DNA of 64,000 nucleotides from Escherichia phage AV108. The position numbers were made by a program, and so were the translations under genes. Location: the sequence record OR352938.1. One strand, written 5' to 3'. The notes beneath the pieces are model-generated. The model ran no database searches and had not been told where the DNA came from. It saw nothing but the letters and a program-made list of their open reading frames with translations. Position 1 is the stretch's first letter. Each line of letters begins with the position of its first letter. Below, one piece after another: positions 25,578-43,632 of this stretch.

Positions 25578-25619
25578 TTTGATTCTCCTTAAAAAAGTGT
25601 GTTTCGTTTTGATGTGTGT

Positions 25620-25648
25620 AGTATAGGGGATCACCGATCCCCTGTCAA
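25620..25648 (-). promoter_or_regulatory. sigma70-type early promoter (TTGACA-N17-TATACT)
   Basis: Spacer contains GGGGATCggtGATCCCC palindrome; conserved CATCAAAACGAAACACAC leader. Confidence 0.5.
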
Positions 25649-25656
25649 CAACTTTT

Positions 25657-25986
25657 TTATGATTTTAGTGAATTAACCACTACATCAAAATGATGTACAG
25701 AGCACACCTTACGAAACACATACTCATCATGTTTAGGGGTCGCCCCCAACCTCTCTATTTCGCTCGCCATAACGACAAACTGTTTATCTGGTGCATATGC
25801 CTTGTGTGCTTCAACAACGCACGGAAAACGCGTTTTAGAGAGTTCTGGATAGTTTTCTGAATCCAGAAGGACGATGAATACCCTATTACATTGATTGTAG
25901 AATCCGGTTTTTGATTTCATCAAGTTTTCTTCTCTGTGCAATTCGTGCAATCTTCCTTTCATGATTTCGTTGGTTCCTGTCTTCAT
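25657..25986 (-). CDS. Hypothetical protein (start uncertain)
   Basis: Track ORF; overlaps upstream ORF so true start probably internal. Confidence 0.4.
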   Translation of the reverse strand: MKTGTNEIMKGRLHELHREENLMKSKTGFYNQCNRVFIVLLDSENYPELSKTRFPCVVEAHKAYAPDKQFVVMASEIERLGATPKHDEYVFRKVCSVHHFDVVVNSLKS

Positions 25987-26227
25987 AGTCTACCCACTCA
26001 ACAAGATCTTTACCTAACTCGAAAGCCCATTCTCGATCCTGCTTTACGTTTTGTAGGTATGAGCTTTCCGACACTCGACGAAGTGATGTTGTCGTAACAA
26101 GAATGATCTCAGGAATGGTCGGATGTTCTTTTCCATATACAATAGGACGCGAGTCACTATCAATACCTTGTAAGAAGGTGTATCCTGAATCACTTAGAAT
26201 CATATACTTTTTCATTTCACACATCAC
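25886..26227 (-). CDS. Hypothetical protein (113 aa)
   Basis: Track ORF. Confidence 0.4.
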   Translation of the reverse strand: MMCEMKKYMILSDSGYTFLQGIDSDSRPIVYGKEHPTIPEIILVTTTSLRRVSESSYLQNVKQDREWAFELGKDLVEWVDYEDRNQRNHERKIARIAQRRKLDEIKNRILQSM

Positions 26228-26481
26228 AGTTTCCTCAACCAGTTATTCAAGCGAGTAAACCATGATGCTTTTCGTGCTTCTTTTACTTTATGTGCACGTA
26301 AACCACTGAAACACCATTCATAATCATCACTGAAACATGATTCAACAGGAACACCCGCATTTCGTAGTTCTCTGGTCTTTATCATGAATCCTTGACATAA
26401 GGGGCGACCTTCAACAATGATAGGAAGTTTAACTTTTTCCATGAAAGTATACCCAGCACGGTCAATAATTTCAATTTTCAT
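26224..26481 (-). CDS. Hypothetical protein (85 aa)
   Basis: Track ORF, ATGA coupling. Confidence 0.4.
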   Translation of the reverse strand: MKIEIIDRAGYTFMEKVKLPIIVEGRPLCQGFMIKTRELRNAGVPVESCFSDDYEWCFSGLRAHKVKEARKASWFTRLNNWLRKL

Positions 26482-26725
26482 TTACATTATCTCCATAGAT
26501 CTTTCCAGCAATATCAATTTCACCAGCGCGAACATCTAGGATAAGATGCGGTAGGTGTATGCAGTTTTCCCACCCTACGCGCTTCATTTCTTCTACGGTA
26601 ACGTAAGCCCACCCGTTCGCTGTAATAAAGTCTACTTCAACCTTGAGAGGAAAGCAAGACTTTTCTATGTCTTCGAATCCGACAATATGTTTTGTTGTTG
26701 AATATGGAATATATCCGGTGATCAT
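26471..26725 (-). CDS. Hypothetical protein (84 aa)
   Basis: Track ORF. Confidence 0.4.
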   Translation of the reverse strand: MITGYIPYSTTKHIVGFEDIEKSCFPLKVEVDFITANGWAYVTVEEMKRVGWENCIHLPHLILDVRAGEIDIAGKIYGDNVNEN

Positions 26726-27156
26726 TTTGTGATCTCCTTATACTCAACACACCATAAGCGGGTAGCCCATGATAAACGCTCATAACGCTGGCAGAAATCG
26801 GACCATAGATATTGTGCACCGTTCGGCATAGTTGAAATATGCGTTTTCTCTCCAACTTTCACGAAAGAAGTATTCGATTTTGTGATCTCGACCGGAGTAT
26901 ATCCGAAAGCGGGTTCCAAGCCAACATCTGAACTAAATGCCAATTTAACAGAATTTGTTTTTCTGACCGCTGTCCGGTTTCCTTCTGGGTATAGCACAGC
27001 AGGTTTAGCGCCTAAGCGGATAAACTCAGTATTTTTAATGAACAGAATATCATGATAACCGTCATATTCTGACACTTCCATAGTAACAGGAAAATCGACA
27101 TGTGCTAAACCTGGTAGATCTCGCATATCATGAAAGGTCGCCATCAACTTTTTCAT
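26722..27156 (-). CDS. Hypothetical protein (~144 aa)
   Basis: Start at MKKLMATF with GAGGA RBS. Confidence 0.45.
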   Translation of the reverse strand: MKKLMATFHDMRDLPGLAHVDFPVTMEVSEYDGYHDILFIKNTEFIRLGAKPAVLYPEGNRTAVRKTNSVKLAFSSDVGLEPAFGYTPVEITKSNTSFVKVGEKTHISTMPNGAQYLWSDFCQRYERLSWATRLWCVEYKEITK

Positions 27157-27166
27157 TCTATATTCC

Positions 27167-27364
27167 TCACTCTTCTGTTTCATTTCTTTTATATGGTACG
27201 ATAACAGGATTAATACAGCAAGCACCAATTACGTTATGAGCACCACAATTTAAACATTTATAGTCATGGAACTTATTAAGGAATCGACCAAACTCATAAC
27301 CGACTAGCGCCGCATGTACTTGAGTCTCGATCTCATCCATATCAGCCAATGTTTTAACCTTCAT
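27167..27364 (-). CDS. Small Cys-rich protein (~65 aa)
   Basis: CLNCGAHNVIGACC motif; start MKVKTLADM with GAGGA RBS. Confidence 0.45.
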   Translation of the reverse strand: MKVKTLADMDEIETQVHAALVGYEFGRFLNKFHDYKCLNCGAHNVIGACCINPVIVPYKRNETEE

Positions 27365-27374
27365 AGTATAATCC

Positions 27375-27665
27375 TCAAATGGTAGTTTTGCGAAGATGGT
27401 CATTACATGCTTTTAATGCATCAGTCGCGGTGTCATAGCGAGTATTATCATAGCACCAATAACCATCTGTCAACTGATAAATTAATCCATCCTTTTTAGC
27501 TTCGATGAAAGATAACTCTTTGAAAGTTTCTACTTTCTTTGCTGATACTCCACGGTCACGGCGTTTATAGAGTTTAGCTAAAATGCGTTCAGCTTGTTCC
27601 TCTTTATCACCTGACAGATCCCAGATGATGTTTCGGATATGCTTGATTAATTGTTCAGTGGTCAT
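27375..27665 (-). CDS. Hypothetical protein (96 aa)
   Basis: Directly after promoter cassette with GGAGAATCAAAG RBS. Confidence 0.5.
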   Translation of the reverse strand: MTTEQLIKHIRNIIWDLSGDKEEQAERILAKLYKRRDRGVSAKKVETFKELSFIEAKKDGLIYQLTDGYWCYDNTRYDTATDALKACNDHLRKTTI

Positions 27666-27694
27666 CTTTGATTCTCCTTAGTTGGTATGCGTGC

Positions 27695-42093: not shown

Positions 42094-42284
42094 GGTTTTA
42101 CCTCAATTCTTCGATATTCATCACACATCCACGCAGTAAGCAAGAATCCCAACACATAAGCAACAAAATACGTTAATGCTTCTTCTGGTTCGGTGCTATG
42201 CGCCATCATCAGACCAGCGAGAAAGGTCTTAACAATTACATTTAAAATAATTAGCCACGCAAATAATTTCATCGTTTGCCCCAT
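42090..42284 (-). CDS. Small membrane protein (64 aa)
   Basis: Hydrophobic; ATGA coupling. Confidence 0.45.
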   Translation of the reverse strand: MGQTMKLFAWLIILNVIVKTFLAGLMMAHSTEPEEALTYFVAYVLGFLLTAWMCDEYRRIEVKP

Positions 42285-42493
42285 TTCGGTCGAGTCTTTT
42301 CAAACTTATACATTCCGTAACAATCTCGAATCATCCACGTAACAAGAGCACCAGTCAACACAGACAATACACAGAAGAAGTAAAACGGTCCGGTTGCATT
42401 ATCAACATGAGCAAGCCAGGTAAAGAAAACACATGCAAGGAATGTAAAGAACATCATAAAGCACAAGAAAGCGAAATATTTTATACTACTCAT
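42269..42493 (-). CDS. Small membrane protein (~74 aa)
   Basis: Hydrophobic; start at MSSIKYF overlapping upstream stop. Confidence 0.4.
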   Translation of the reverse strand: MSSIKYFAFLCFMMFFTFLACVFFTWLAHVDNATGPFYFFCVLSVLTGALVTWMIRDCYGMYKFEKTRPKWGKR

Positions 42494-42600
42494 AGCGCCA
42501 CCATACAACAGATCATAAGAAACCCCAACGCAATAAGAATTGCGTCAAATTTAGTGAACTCCGGTCCACCTATCAACATCATTCGTTCCTGTTCATTCAT
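42490..42600 (-). CDS. Small membrane peptide (~36 aa; coordinates approximate)
   Basis: Hand-translated MNEQERMMLIGGPEFTKFDAILIALGFLMICCMVAL; below track cutoff. Confidence 0.3.
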   Translation of the reverse strand: MNEQERMMLIGGPEFTKFDAILIALGFLMICCMVAL

Positions 42601-42782
42601 AGATCACAGAGCCATCTGAAAGCACCACATAAAGCGAGCAGAATACTAGGTATAAACGAGACTAAAACAAGTTGGCAAAAATCATCTAAGGTAACACCGG
42701 AATAGCTACCTACTGTAACAACACCGATCATCAGACACAGAAAGAAAACAAATGCAATCAGAAACAAAGTATTGCTAAACAG

Positions 42783-42986
42783 TTAGTGATCATTAGACAC
42801 CCCACGACGATCAATTTCAAAAACTTTTTTATCATCAACGAAGCATGTCACAACTGCCTCGTTGACTTCCGCAAATTGTTGTGTTACCCACTTAAGGTCA
42901 GAGCGAAACAATGTTCTATTAATAACAAATGTTTTACCGCTCTTATCCTTACCCATAAATTTTGCTTTAACCATATCCAATTCCAT
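42783..42986 (-). CDS. Hypothetical protein (67 aa)
   Basis: Track ORF. Confidence 0.4.
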   Translation of the reverse strand: MELDMVKAKFMGKDKSGKTFVINRTLFRSDLKWVTQQFAEVNEAVVTCFVDDKKVFEIDRRGVSNDH

Positions 42987-42995
42987 ATTATCACC

Positions 42996-43154
42996 TTATT
43001 TGCTAATCGCTAAACCCAATCCGAAGAGAGCACCCGATGCTACAGTATACCCGAAAGTTTCAAAGGCAGTAAAGATATCTAAGCCACCAGCTAACAGAGT
43101 TGCAGTAAACAGAGTACCAGCTACGAACATAAAAGTTTTACCGATAAATTTCAT
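42996..43154 (-). CDS. Small membrane peptide (~52 aa; coordinates approximate)
   Basis: Hand-translated MKFIGKTFMFVAGTLFTATLLAGGLDIFTAFETFGYTVASGALFGLGLAISK; canonical GGAGAATCAAA RBS and promoter cassette upstream. Confidence 0.45.
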   Translation of the reverse strand: MKFIGKTFMFVAGTLFTATLLAGGLDIFTAFETFGYTVASGALFGLGLAISK

Positions 43155-43185
43155 TTTGATTCTCCTTTCGTTTGTTTGTGGGGGT

Positions 43186-43214
43186 ATCTTACTACCCCCG
43201 TTTCATGTTGTCAA
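43186..43214 (-). promoter_or_regulatory. sigma70-type early promoter
   Basis: TTGACA-N17-TAAGAT inside GGGGGTAGTAAGATACCCCC palindrome. Confidence 0.45.
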
Positions 43215-43220
43215 CTGTTT

Positions 43221-43595
43221 TTAAGAAAATTTTACTTCGTCTACAATGTCTTTCATGACATTGATTTCCATTCCGGTCAGAACACGTTGGAACATGTGCT
43301 GCACATACGCTTTCAGGTATTCATTTGATGGCTTACTATCGAAAGTCTTTTTAGTGTAGTAGTCATCACCGAAAGCTACTGTAATTACATTTTCGTCGTC
43401 GTTCCAAGCGATATAAGCAAATTTGCCGTTATCCCAGAAGCGAGCACTAATTGCTACTTTTGTTGAATCGAATCCTACTTCGCTGTGAGATTCAAGAACT
43501 ACTTGCGTGCCAGTTTCTTTATGAATGTAGTAGCGGGATACTAAGTCAAAGTTACGGGTGTAGTGACATTCGAATTTATCTTTAAACATCATCAT
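43221..43595 (-). CDS. Hypothetical protein (~124 aa)
   Basis: Start MMMFKDKFECHY after GGAGAATCAAA RBS. Confidence 0.5.
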   Translation of the reverse strand: MMMFKDKFECHYTRNFDLVSRYYIHKETGTQVVLESHSEVGFDSTKVAISARFWDNGKFAYIAWNDDENVITVAFGDDYYTKKTFDSKPSNEYLKAYVQHMFQRVLTGMEINVMKDIVDEVKFS

Positions 43596-43632
43596 TTTGA
43601 TTCTCCTAAGTGTGTTTCGTTTCGATATGTGC

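Follow-up and report, generated by a model that had tools for sequence, protein, structure and literature searches.

The closest described counterparts of the leader analysed here are the promoter-early stem-loop (PeSL) cassettes known from T4-like phages, among them RB49 and phi1, which belong to the same genus as the present sequence (Arbiol et al. 2010, PMC2839356; Comeau et al. 2014, PMC4122927). In the first of these papers a PeSL is defined as the combination of a terminator or stem-loop, an early promoter, an SD and an ATG, mini-circle crossovers are mapped between the -10 and the SD/ATG, and the homology need of T4-type recombination is given as less than 50 bp (PMC2839356). Both papers align the elements on promoter and SD with emphasis on the stem-loop; in the passages searched, the start box treated below, its selection and its fixed spacing receive no separate mention, nor is such a box reported outside the T4-like phages. 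Early-promoter predictions in RB49 are consistent with 5'-end mapping, positions -3 to -1 being C-rich (PMC1524935).

RegA sites of T4-type phages are A+U-rich and overlap or abut the AUG (PMC3014915), and RegB/S1 sites in T4 early mRNAs follow the consensus GGAGRAYARAA (Durand et al. 2006, PMC1702504). As to the initial transcribed sequence (ITS), productive yield follows purine content, a YG step near +6 slows escape and GG or GA helps (PMC5961368), and the first 15-20 nt alter output about 5-fold (PMC9440211). T7 A1 (ATCGAGAGGGACAC; transcript start ATCGAGAGG), T7 A3 (ATGAAACGACAG; transcript start ATGAAACGAC) and T5 N25 are strong phage promoters for the host polymerase that start with C(-1)/A(+1)U(+2), as the promoters described here are predicted to do.

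Promoter cassettes of a Krischvirus window

The window, i.e. the whole 64-kb stretch analysed, is 97-98.5% identical to GEC-3S, Sf20, RB49 and phi1 and is, judged from its sequence, a Krischvirus (RB49/phi1/GEC-3S-like). The original prediction had described a nearly identical transcribed leader in many early-gene cassettes, and this repetition is real and non-random: the 16-mer CATCGAAACGAAACAC has five matches in the window at up to three mismatches, all of them with at most two, where 0.87 were expected, and 0 of 100 shuffled sequences reached five. The motif lies on the minus strand, the string originally quoted being in transcript sense, with exact copies at 40659-40674 and 41621-41636, copies with one mismatch at 25599-25614 and 43612-43627, and a copy with two at 28841-28856. 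The places named near 25600, 28840, 40650, 41620 and 43610 are therefore confirmed, while that near 34725 shares CATCGAAAC only. The proposed second subtype turned out to be a mixture of two cassettes, CATCGAAAACAACGAGAGGACAACATG (17063-17048) and CACTTAACAACGAGAGGATTATATTATG (19568-19553), and the range first given, 25590-43630, was too narrow, as cassettes occur from 15.9 kb to 58.6 kb.

Since terminator or stem-loop, TTGACA-N17-(T/C)ATAAT, SD and ATG are combined in them as in the PeSL definition, the cassettes of the window can be identified with the published PeSLs. Both share the AT-rich region, the near-consensus sigma-70 promoter, the G-run/C-run stem-loop or terminator, the SD and ATG and a site among small ORFans, and the published crossover interval, -10 to SD/ATG, is the leader studied here. 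Apart from a sole plus-strand cassette (58615..58674, leader CATCTAAACAACGGAGGATAAATTATG), those found lie on the minus strand. The cassette at 43595..43698 comprises a terminator hairpin (43698-43678), a -35 at 43661, a -10 at 43638-43633, a predicted start at 43626, the start box TATCGAAACGAAACAC (43627-43612), the SD GGAGAATCAAA and an ATG at 43595, and that at 41595..41725 a terminator (41725-41704), a -35 at 41670, a -10 at 41647-41642, a predicted start at 41635, an exact box (41636-41621) and an ATG at 41595. At 40637..40708 (-35 at 40708, ATG at 40637) the stem GGGTGTAT..ATACACCC overlaps the -10 (40685-40680), and the box (40674-40659; predicted start 40673) is again exact. Upstream terminators are also present at 30073..30172 (terminator 30172-30145; box variant TATCGACAACAAAGGA, 30098-30083) and 27665..27761 (terminator 27761-27740; leader class CATACCAACTAAGGAG, 27689-27674), and stem-loops at 25577..25648 (GGGGATCGGTGATCCCC, between -35 and -10; start box CATCAAAACGAAACAC, 25614-25599; ATG 25577) and 41343..41401 (GGGGAGGATAACTCCCC; leader CATCAACGAAACGGGAG, 41367-41352). 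The cassette at 28821..28890 (-10 28867-28862; ATG 28821) carries the variant box CATCGAAACGAGATAC (28856-28841), and the short-leader cassette at 34716..34777, head of the regB-containing transcription unit, passes after CATCGAAAC directly into the SD (leader CATCGAAACAACAAAGGAG, 34742-34727). Further cassettes lie at 43154..43214 (leader CACAAACAAACGAAAGGAG, 43180-43165), 24909..24972 (consensus promoter; leader CATCAAATGAACGATGTGAGGATTATATTATG), 21686..21747 (leader CATCTAATCAAGAAGGAGAATCAACAATG) and 15879..15950, the start box of which, CATCAAGACGAGATAC (15916-15901), is identical to CATCAAAACGAGATAC of phage T1 at 15 of 16 positions. The "subtype 2" cassettes are those at 17039..17096 (CATCGAAAACAACGAGAGGA at 17063-17048), 19543..19601 (CACTTAACAACGAGAGGATTATATTATG) and 20776..20836 (CATCTAAACAACGAGAGGATTATATTATG); the leaders at 20802 and 58648(+) are related to those of the first two.

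Each copy of the motif begins 5 nt after the -10 hexamer of a TTGACA-N16-18-(T/C)ATAAT promoter, SD and ATG coming next; towards the AUG the distance is not fixed and ranges in the window between 18 and 40 nt. Among contexts of CATCGAAACG with at most one mismatch, 92 of 181 unique ones are preceded by a -10-like hexamer at a distance of exactly 5 nt, against 0-10 at each other offset. Short leaders in other phages keep only about -1 to +10, with the SD directly after about +10, and in some phages the box stands ahead of a long leader (at least 250 nt) and not of an RBS. The motif corresponds to positions -1 to +15, i.e. the predicted transcription start and the ITS, and is by its placement first of all a part of the promoter, not an operator at the ribosome site. 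Across the 20 cassettes, positions -1, +1, +3, +5 and +10 hold 0.9-1.5 bits per column, similar to the columns of the -35 hexamer, and CATC is common to about 13 of them. The coincidence of the start of the motif with the predicted transcription start had been overlooked in the original prediction.

Composition and selection of the start sequence

We consider it probable, short of confident, that the leader is the downstream half of the Krischvirus early-promoter cassettes, its start sequence being selected for efficient initiation, promoter escape and an open 5' end and serving PeSL homology as well. C(-1)/A(+1) is predicted to be the start point for the host sigma-70 RNA polymerase, so that AUCGAAACGAAACAC would be the ITS from +1 to +15, behind which an A/C-rich spacer and a GGAG Shine-Dalgarno lead to the AUG of a small early gene. 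Because the -35 and -10 are near consensus and the upstream regions A-rich, promoter exit is likely the slow step, and a purine-rich, U-poor start free of a pyrimidine-G step at about +5 to +8 would favour productive initiation over abortive cycling and pausing. Through the same start sequence the 5' end of the mRNA may stay unpaired and the ribosome site open.

The purine fraction of the start sequence is 0.68-0.69 (background 0.54) and its T content 7-9% (background 29%), YG steps at +5 to +8 make up 0-5% and purine-purine steps at +4 to +7 55-75%. This composition, rich in purines and poor in YG steps, fits the published escape rules and resembles escape-proficient ITS variants (PMC5961368), and the stretch that is conserved, about 15 nt, is as long as the region known to affect escape (PMC9440211). 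The CG steps at +3/+4 and +8/+9 are of the pause type, not the escape type, and in RNA:DNA-versus-DNA:DNA stability, a measure taken from a published promoter model, the motif is unremarkable (35th percentile). As to the covariation and folding analysis that had been suggested, the leaders are unstructured, less folded than shuffled sequences, and the motif matches no Rfam family; there is thus no structure in which to look for covariation.

Variable sites were counted by class across six related genomes. In the ITS 5 of 159 sites vary, compared with 157 of 1171 at codon position 3 (p=5e-5) and 29 of 204 in the promoter spacer (p=2e-4), so that the ITS changes 4-5 times more slowly than either; the -35 and -10 boxes have 0/72 and 1/72 variable sites, respectively. 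The ITS is thus under purifying selection, which bears out the claim of conservation beyond the needs of -10 and SD and counters recent duplication as its sole cause. In the same cassettes in which the ITS is conserved, near-neutral variation is seen in the spacer and in the discriminator, the 6 nt separating -10 and start.

The start box in other phages

In T1-like, FelixO1-like, jumbo and further T4-like phages, promoters of differing type carry the box at an equal distance from the -10. Copies of the 16-mer without mismatch stand behind TTGACA-, GTTTAC-, TTGCAT- and T1-type promoters; they come from Ounavirinae, a jumbo phage, Schizotequatrovirus, Gualtarvirus and Drexlerviridae, the hosts being Enterobacterales (Escherichia among them), Aeromonas and Vibrio. 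T1-type promoters anchored by their upstream box alone (77 seed-free cases) again gave the consensus C followed by ATCGAAACGAA, and one Vibrio chromosomal promoter, conserved in six species, bears the box. Known ITS effects are described, for single promoters, as loose rules of composition or dinucleotides, whereas here one specific 10-16-mer is repeated at dozens of promoters across several phage families. Because the general escape rules predict only a loose purine-rich preference, the exact 16-mer in Escherichia, Vibrio and Aeromonas phages favours either copying, through horizontal transfer or shared ancestry, or recognition of a more specific kind. The leader belongs to a known promoter cassette; for the cross-family sharing of its start sequence no description was found in the literature.

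The leader might have no function of its own and be a pure homology patch, kept alike by PeSL recombination or gene conversion and spread by cassette transfer. This fits the crossover interval and short homology need given for PeSLs (PMC2839356), a junction in phage LF73P4, where a different promoter is fused to the leader of the 27665..27761 cassette exactly at -1/+1, and the occurrence of T1-type promoters within the T4-like Karam- and Slopekvirus genomes. T1-like phages moreover share whole leaders with Krischvirus (42 nt at 88% identity, E=6e-4 in a search of 2.3 Gb), and variants such as ..ACGAGATAC, CATCGACAACAAAG and CATACCAAC recur between them. Nevertheless we regard it as unlikely, since near-neutral spacers and discriminators beside a conserved ITS are not the pattern of whole-cassette homogenisation, the strict 5-nt spacing and the seed-free consensus point to function, the box stands at the conserved Vibrio promoter, and, of about 10 indel breakpoints that distinguish related genomes, a single one falls at a cassette start. 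Under the promoter-escape reading the leader would double as a homology patch, as many cassettes repeat 20-40 nt almost identically; the recombination signal originally suggested agrees with the published crossovers and with the LF73P4 junction.

Purifying selection on the ITS does not tell a DNA-level from an RNA-level function and is equally compatible with the latter. The box might be a 5'-terminal RNA element read post-transcriptionally by a conserved host component that sets early mRNA stability or translation, candidate readers being 5'-end-dependent decay (RppH/RNase E), ribosomal protein S1 or a 30S standby site, or another 5'-end binder. An exact 16-mer behind unrelated promoters is more specific than an escape preference, and the box is always 5'-terminal, single-stranded, A/C-rich and U-poor, which makes such an element possible, if on the unlikely side. 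However, the box is not U-rich, as S1 sites are, lacks an Rfam family and pairs with 16S rRNA at -8.1 kcal/mol compared with -11.05 for shuffles, 97% of which pair as well or better; the short leaders match in length the stage of initial transcription, and in some phages it is the long leader, in place of an RBS, that follows the box.

It is highly improbable that a regulator which blocks or activates early promoters binds the box as DNA, at +1 to +15. The fixed place of the box just past the start is a frequent site of repressor action and CGAAA forms a direct repeat in it, but it contains no palindrome, the short leaders retain only -1 to +10, and a common phage regulator is implausible over such unrelated families, while a host protein would need to be common to bacteria from Vibrio to Escherichia. 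A BLAST search of 5,426 E. coli genomes with a 51-nt cassette-leader query, in which only exact runs of at least about 21 nt were detectable, gave no match, nor did the -10-plus-motif pattern in Enterobacterales genomes.

RegA, RegB and the Shine-Dalgarno segment

A translational operator, with RegA as the protein to be assayed, and an RNase processing site had also been proposed. Homology to phi1 places regA in the window, regB falls within 25590-43630 by annotation of related genomes, and the leaders share with RegA operators (PMC3014915) that they are unstructured leader RNA of early genes. It is nonetheless very doubtful that the core motif is a RegA operator or a cleavage site of RegB or host RNase E. 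Unlike RegA sites, the 16-mer is poor in U and lies at the 5' end, 23-40 nt before the AUG and with the SD intervening, its spacing being kept to the -10; it has no GGA for RegB, and it is also present in T1-like, jumbo and FelixO1-like phages, the records of T1 and Rogue1 having no annotated regA or regB.

The likeness to both systems belongs to another element, the segment from SD to AUG. The A-rich AAUCAAAAUG adjoins the AUG as in RegA sites, and GGAGAAUCAAA, 5-20 nt 3' of the core motif, agrees with the RegB/S1 consensus at 10 of 11 positions, position 8 being C where A is preferred; like the T4 sites (PMC1702504) it is single-stranded and confined to promoter-proximal early genes. We infer that GGAGAAUCAAA is a plausible candidate RegB/S1 cleavage site, separate from the start box, which may later switch off early messages. 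GGAG SDs are found in 14 of 18 promoter-proximal genes and 24 of 99 other genes, and GGAGAATCAA in 9 and 0 of them, respectively.

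Repeated leaders in the early cassettes

The original prediction of a nearly identical leader downstream of the -10 element of many early genes was confirmed, as the 16-mer CATCGAAACGAAACAC has five matches on the minus strand of the window compared with 0.87 expected, and none of the shuffles contained five. Two copies are exact (40659-40674 and 41621-41636), two carry one mismatch (25599-25614 and 43612-43627) and one carries two (28841-28856), all on the minus strand. Since GC skew and ORFs place the genes up to about 50 kb on that strand, the leader had been quoted in the transcript sense. 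A copy proposed near 34725 is present but has only CATCGAAAC in common, and the string taken for a second subtype turned out to be two different cassettes merged into one.

A scan of the window yielded 20 cassettes of one layout, in which an A-rich upstream region is followed by TTGACA, 16-18 nt, (T/C)ATAAT, 5 nt and CA(T/C)(C/A)..., and then by an A/C-rich stretch, the SD and the ATG of a small gene. The TTGACA-N16-18-(T/C)ATAAT promoters score 11-12/12 and are A-rich at -40 to -44. A stem-loop of a G-run and a C-run lies between or across the hexamers in several cassettes, among them those at 25.6 kb (GGGGATCGGTGATCCCC), 34.7 kb (GGGGGTAGTAATATACCCCC), 40.7 kb (GGGTGTAT..ATACACCC) and 41.4 kb (GGGGAGGATAACTCCCC), and intrinsic terminators are located immediately upstream of four promoters (43661, 41670, 30132 and 27722). 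The ORFs downstream of the cassette SD and ATG comprise 50-645 aa, and the genes around the cassettes are mostly small hypothetical ORFs in phi1, GEC-3S and Makalu. The window shares 97-98.5% identity with Sf20, GEC-3S, RB49 and phi1, i.e. it belongs to Krischvirus. For RB49 and phi1, the published descriptions have the promoter-early stem-loop (PeSL) cassette extend from the upstream stop codon through SD and ATG (PMC2839356; PMC4122927). With their promoters, stem-loops or terminators and SD-ATG segments, the cassettes of the window are these already described PeSLs, and the repeated leader is part of a known cassette. Within the minus-strand gene block there is also a strong hairpin at 38916-38940 (GCGGGTAGT...ACTACCCGC) with a terminator score on both strands.

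Position and conservation of the start box

The leader motif begins 5 nt past the -10 hexamer, a distance that puts its C at -1 and its A at the predicted +1, with AUCGAAACGAAACAC covering +1 to +15. The motif, here called the start box, is predicted to be the start site together with the initial transcribed sequence (ITS) of a sigma-70 promoter. Published models of the RB49 early promoters stop at the start site, are C-rich at -3 to -1 and reportedly match 5'-end mapping (PMC1524935). The T7 promoters A1, with an annotated start in its record, and A3 likewise open with CC/ATCGAGAGGGACAC and AC/ATGAAACGACAG, respectively (the slash separating -1 from +1). Across the 20 cassettes, columns -1, +1, +3, +5 and +10 hold 0.9-1.5 bits, equal to the columns of the -35 hexamer.

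The spacing was determined in a pool of the window, T1, Rogue1 and 71 IMG/VR loci, in which CATCGAAACG occurs at no more than one mismatch in 181 unique contexts. A -10-like hexamer is found exactly 5 nt upstream in 92 of them and at every other offset in 0-10; when the exact 16-mer by which the loci had been retrieved is left out, the 5-nt offset accounts for 47 of 116 contexts and no other offset for more than 4. The distance from the box to the AUG varies between 18 and 40 nt in the window, while elsewhere short leaders place the SD directly after about +10 (e.g. CATCGAAACGAAGGAG, CATCGAAACGGAGGAA) and some phages have a non-coding leader of at least 250 nt 3' of the box. The box is locked to the promoter and not to the ribosome site.

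In an alignment of six related genomes (Makalu_002, LF73P4, RB49, SFHK24, phi1 and GEC-3S), 5 of 159 ITS sites (+1 to +15) are variable, compared with 157 of 1171 codon third positions (p=4.6e-5) and 29 of 204 sites in the -35/-10 spacer (p=2e-4). The -35 hexamer varies at 0/72 sites, the -10 hexamer at 1/72 and the discriminator (-6 to -1) at 6/72. Since adjacent segments within a cassette are free to drift, more than recent duplication or whole-cassette homogenisation is at work, and the purely duplicative origin that would have accounted for the repeats is contradicted by the difference between ITS and spacer. The first 10-15 or so transcribed bases are under selection, with a conservation like that of the -35 box. 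The discriminator changes at a near-neutral rate between a frozen -10 box and a frozen start box, and at position -2 of two cassettes (41637 and 30099) the window has a base found in none of the five genomes compared with it.

Distribution among phages and bacteria

The exact 16-mer occurs in 71 IMG/VR stretches and its reversed form, taken as a control, in 24, a count similar to the number of contexts (about 20) in which the real 16-mer lacks a promoter. About 50 of 72 aligned contexts show -35 and -10 elements, N5, the box and then SD and ATG. The contigs were judged by their length to include Karam-, Slopek- and RB16-type T4-likes and Aeromonas T4-likes as well as a 366-kb jumbo phage and many T1-likes of 45-50 kb. 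The same layout is found in the named genomes of Erwinia phage Pistou (Ounavirinae), E. coli jumbo phage Turkey5, Vibrio phi-ST2 (Schizotequatrovirus), Providencia PSTRCR_121 (Gualtarvirus, with a GTTTAC-type -35) and Enterobacter Phc (Drexlerviridae). T1 and Rogue1 possess a promoter family of the form CAC...TTG(C/T)TAAA-N18-TATAGT-N5-CATCGA(A/C)AACGA. Such T1-type promoters escape a scan of the IMG/VR loci that demands strict TTGACA/TATAAT hexamers; scans centred on the motif or anchored on the upstream box were used. With the upstream box as sole anchor and every exact seed removed, 77 T1-type promoters remained; their consensus, C/ATCGAAACGAA, holds 1.3 bits at +1 and 0.8-1.0 at +5 to +7.

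Variants common to Krischvirus and T1-likes (..ACGAGATAC, CATCGACAACAAAG, CATACCAAC), a match of a whole Krischvirus leader to T1-like leaders over 42 nt (88% identity, E=6e-4) and the presence of T1-type promoters within the T4-like CfP1 and KP15 genomes together indicate that small promoter-leader modules are exchanged or of common descent, besides any functional constraint. In dozens of promoters the upstream box of the T1-likes, CAC(G/T)(A/T)(A/T)TTG(C/T)TAAA(A)C, has its first base 28-29 nt 5' of the -10 element, which is beyond the normal distance of a -35 box, and TGn precedes the -10 in many T1-like promoters. Loci with this box include Rogue1 (L074), T1 (L077), CfP1 (L007, from ~2202) and KP15 (L008, from ~2279), and CAC(G/T)...TAAA(A)C is also present in T4-like genomes of Karam- and Slopekvirus; possible explanations are an activator or UP-like site, or the trace of promoter exchange between families. 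In three contigs of 36-55 kb (L003, L022 and L050), repeated palindromes GCAAATAACGTTTGC around the -35 overlap the box promoters and look like repressor operators. In a group of phage contigs of 47-52 kb (L024, 4386-4130 on the minus strand; L035; L046; L072) the box opens an apparently non-coding leader that spans 250 nt or more ahead of the first plausible gene, with no tRNA or Rfam match.

The proposal of a recombination signal holds in part. Among the mini-circle junctions that have been published, two lie between the -10 and the SD/ATG, and T4-type recombination is said to need less than 50 bp of homology (PMC2839356). LF73P4 lacks a 910-bp segment of the window, and there the leader of the cassette at 27.7 kb follows a different promoter, with the junction precisely at CATACCAAC (-1/+1). 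However, this is the only one of about ten indel breakpoints at a cassette start, and since the other nine or so fall elsewhere, we regard a role in recombination as probable but secondary. Segments present in the window and missing or replaced in Krischvirus relatives are 35957-36549, 39717-40114, 27690-28599 and 30221-30291. RB49, Makalu_002 and SFHK24 have 13-14 bp in place of the first of these (593 bp), a 2-kb insertion is located at 30.2 kb in SFHK24, and at 37.7 kb RB49 carries 644 bp; such segment turnover is typical of hyperplastic regions. If the box spread by recombination, the idea of the PeSL as a mobile promoter cassette would reach past the T4-like phages.

In 185,579 species genomes, TATANT-N5-CATCGAAACGAAAC was found in 19 stretches compared with about 4 expected by our own estimate, none of them in Enterobacterales. 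About 8 of the 19 are phage contigs within assemblies, as judged from contig sizes and flanking sequence. A 178-kb contig of Flagellimonas marina (L096, L098, L102), a 46.7-kb contig of Nitratidesulfovibrio liaohensis (L094, L104) and the loci L097 and L106 carry enterobacterial phage promoters and genes of T4-like (Karam/Slopek-type) or T1-like content, and probably represent contamination of these assemblies. One orthologous chromosomal promoter bears the box in six Vibrio species (L088-L091, L095, L101), where ATGATAATTT(Fur-box-like)...TATACT-N5-CATCGAAACGAAACA(C/T) is followed by a small hairpin and by the gene of a 161-163-aa protein that, from its N-terminal sequence, looks glyoxalase/VOC-like. 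The Vibrio case is a cellular promoter bearing the phage start box. A BLAST search of 5,426 E. coli genomes with a 51-nt cassette leader including the motif (window 41600-41650) gave no match; at this database size, a hit needed an exact run of roughly 21 nt or longer to score.

A limited literature search found no account of a start box that is under selection, fixed in position and common to unrelated phage families, and no phage papers matched the literal sequences CGAAACGAAAC, CATCGAAAC or TTGCTAAA. With moderate confidence, we consider the start box novel as a cross-family element, the new aspects being the selected conservation of the first transcribed bases and the occurrence of nearly the same sequence behind different promoter types in several unrelated virulent phage families, whose hosts are Escherichia, Klebsiella, Erwinia, Providencia, Aeromonas and Vibrio.

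Candidate roles of the leader

Productive yield has been reported to follow purine content, with YG near +6 slowing promoter escape and GG or GA helping it (PMC5961368), and output to change about 5-fold with the first 15-20 nt (PMC9440211). At +1 to +15 of the box promoters the purine fraction is 0.68-0.69 compared with a background of 0.54 and the T fraction 7-9% compared with 29%, while YG steps make up 0-5% at +5 to +8 and purine-purine steps 55-75% at +4 to +7. Near-consensus promoter elements would hold the polymerase and make escape the likely limiting step, and since the ITS fits the published rules, we favour the inference that it is selected for efficient initiation and escape along with an open 5' end and ribosome site. 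However, the exact 16-mer exceeds what the known, loose ITS rules predict, the CG steps at +3/+4 and +8/+9 are pause-like, and an R-loop measure comparing RNA:DNA with DNA:DNA nearest-neighbour energies is unremarkable (35th percentile). A reader of the box at the RNA level is a possible alternative. A more far-reaching and rather doubtful reading regards C/AUCGAAACGA(AACAC) as a start box in its own right, past the -10, that a conserved gammaproteobacterial component reads sequence-specifically; unrelated virulent phages (T4-like, T1-like, FelixO1-like and jumbo) would have gained it through promoter-leader module exchange or convergence and would use it for the expression of their earliest genes. 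This component might be RNA polymerase during initial transcription or a factor that binds 5' ends, and if the idea were true, the box would be an early-expression signal common to phage families rather than a peculiarity of Krischvirus. Should the box boost productive initiation or mRNA use, it would offer a compact, portable part for strong Gram-negative expression, a marker for early promoters in phage genomes and a natural test case for ITS control of promoter escape, which has so far been studied mostly in synthetic libraries.

Several other candidates were rejected. A sigma-dependent promoter-proximal pause element would require a -10-like TAnnnT hexamer within the ITS, and ATCGAAACGAAACAC contains no TAnnnT. 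As an enhancer pairing with 16S rRNA the motif reaches a best duplex of -8.1 kcal/mol compared with a mean of -11.05 for 500 shuffles, 97% of which do at least as well. The leaders before the SD consist of 47% A and 11% G, and the folding check proposed for them revealed no structure: their folding is no better than that of shuffled sequences (z mostly above 0), with the motif unpaired in every leader. Rfam returned no family in the window or in two loci with the box before long non-coding leaders, which together with the folding result led to the rejection of a structured leader RNA or known RNA family; a tRNA search of loci with such leaders found none.

The leader had further been proposed as the operator of a translational repressor such as RegA, whose sites are A+U-rich and overlap or abut the AUG (PMC3014915). 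The core is U-poor (T 7-9%) and ends 8-25 nt upstream of the AUG with the SD in between. In addition, the same box is present in T1, Rogue1, Phc (Drexlerviridae), Pistou (Ounavirinae) and the jumbo phage Turkey5, and no regA is annotated in the full T1 and Rogue1 records. The core is therefore rejected as a RegA operator on position and A+U content and because it is not confined to RegA phages.

An RNase processing site in the core was likewise not borne out. The RegB/S1 target, GGAGRAYARAA (PMC1702504), is a single-stranded 11-mer that begins with GGA(G) and continues in an A-rich tract, whereas the core motif lacks GGA. The SD segment of the cassettes, GGAGAAUCAAA, matches this T4 consensus in 10 of its 11 positions. 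SDs with GGAG precede 14 of 18 promoter-proximal genes compared with 24 of 99 others (p=2e-5), and the SD and spacer GGAGAATCAA(A)ATG occurs at nine promoter-proximal genes (e.g. 25591-25577 and 43609-43595) and at 0 of the 99 others. It is plausible that RegB shuts off early messages via this SD segment, an element distinct from the core, and in related genomes regB is annotated within the unit headed by the 34.7-kb cassette.
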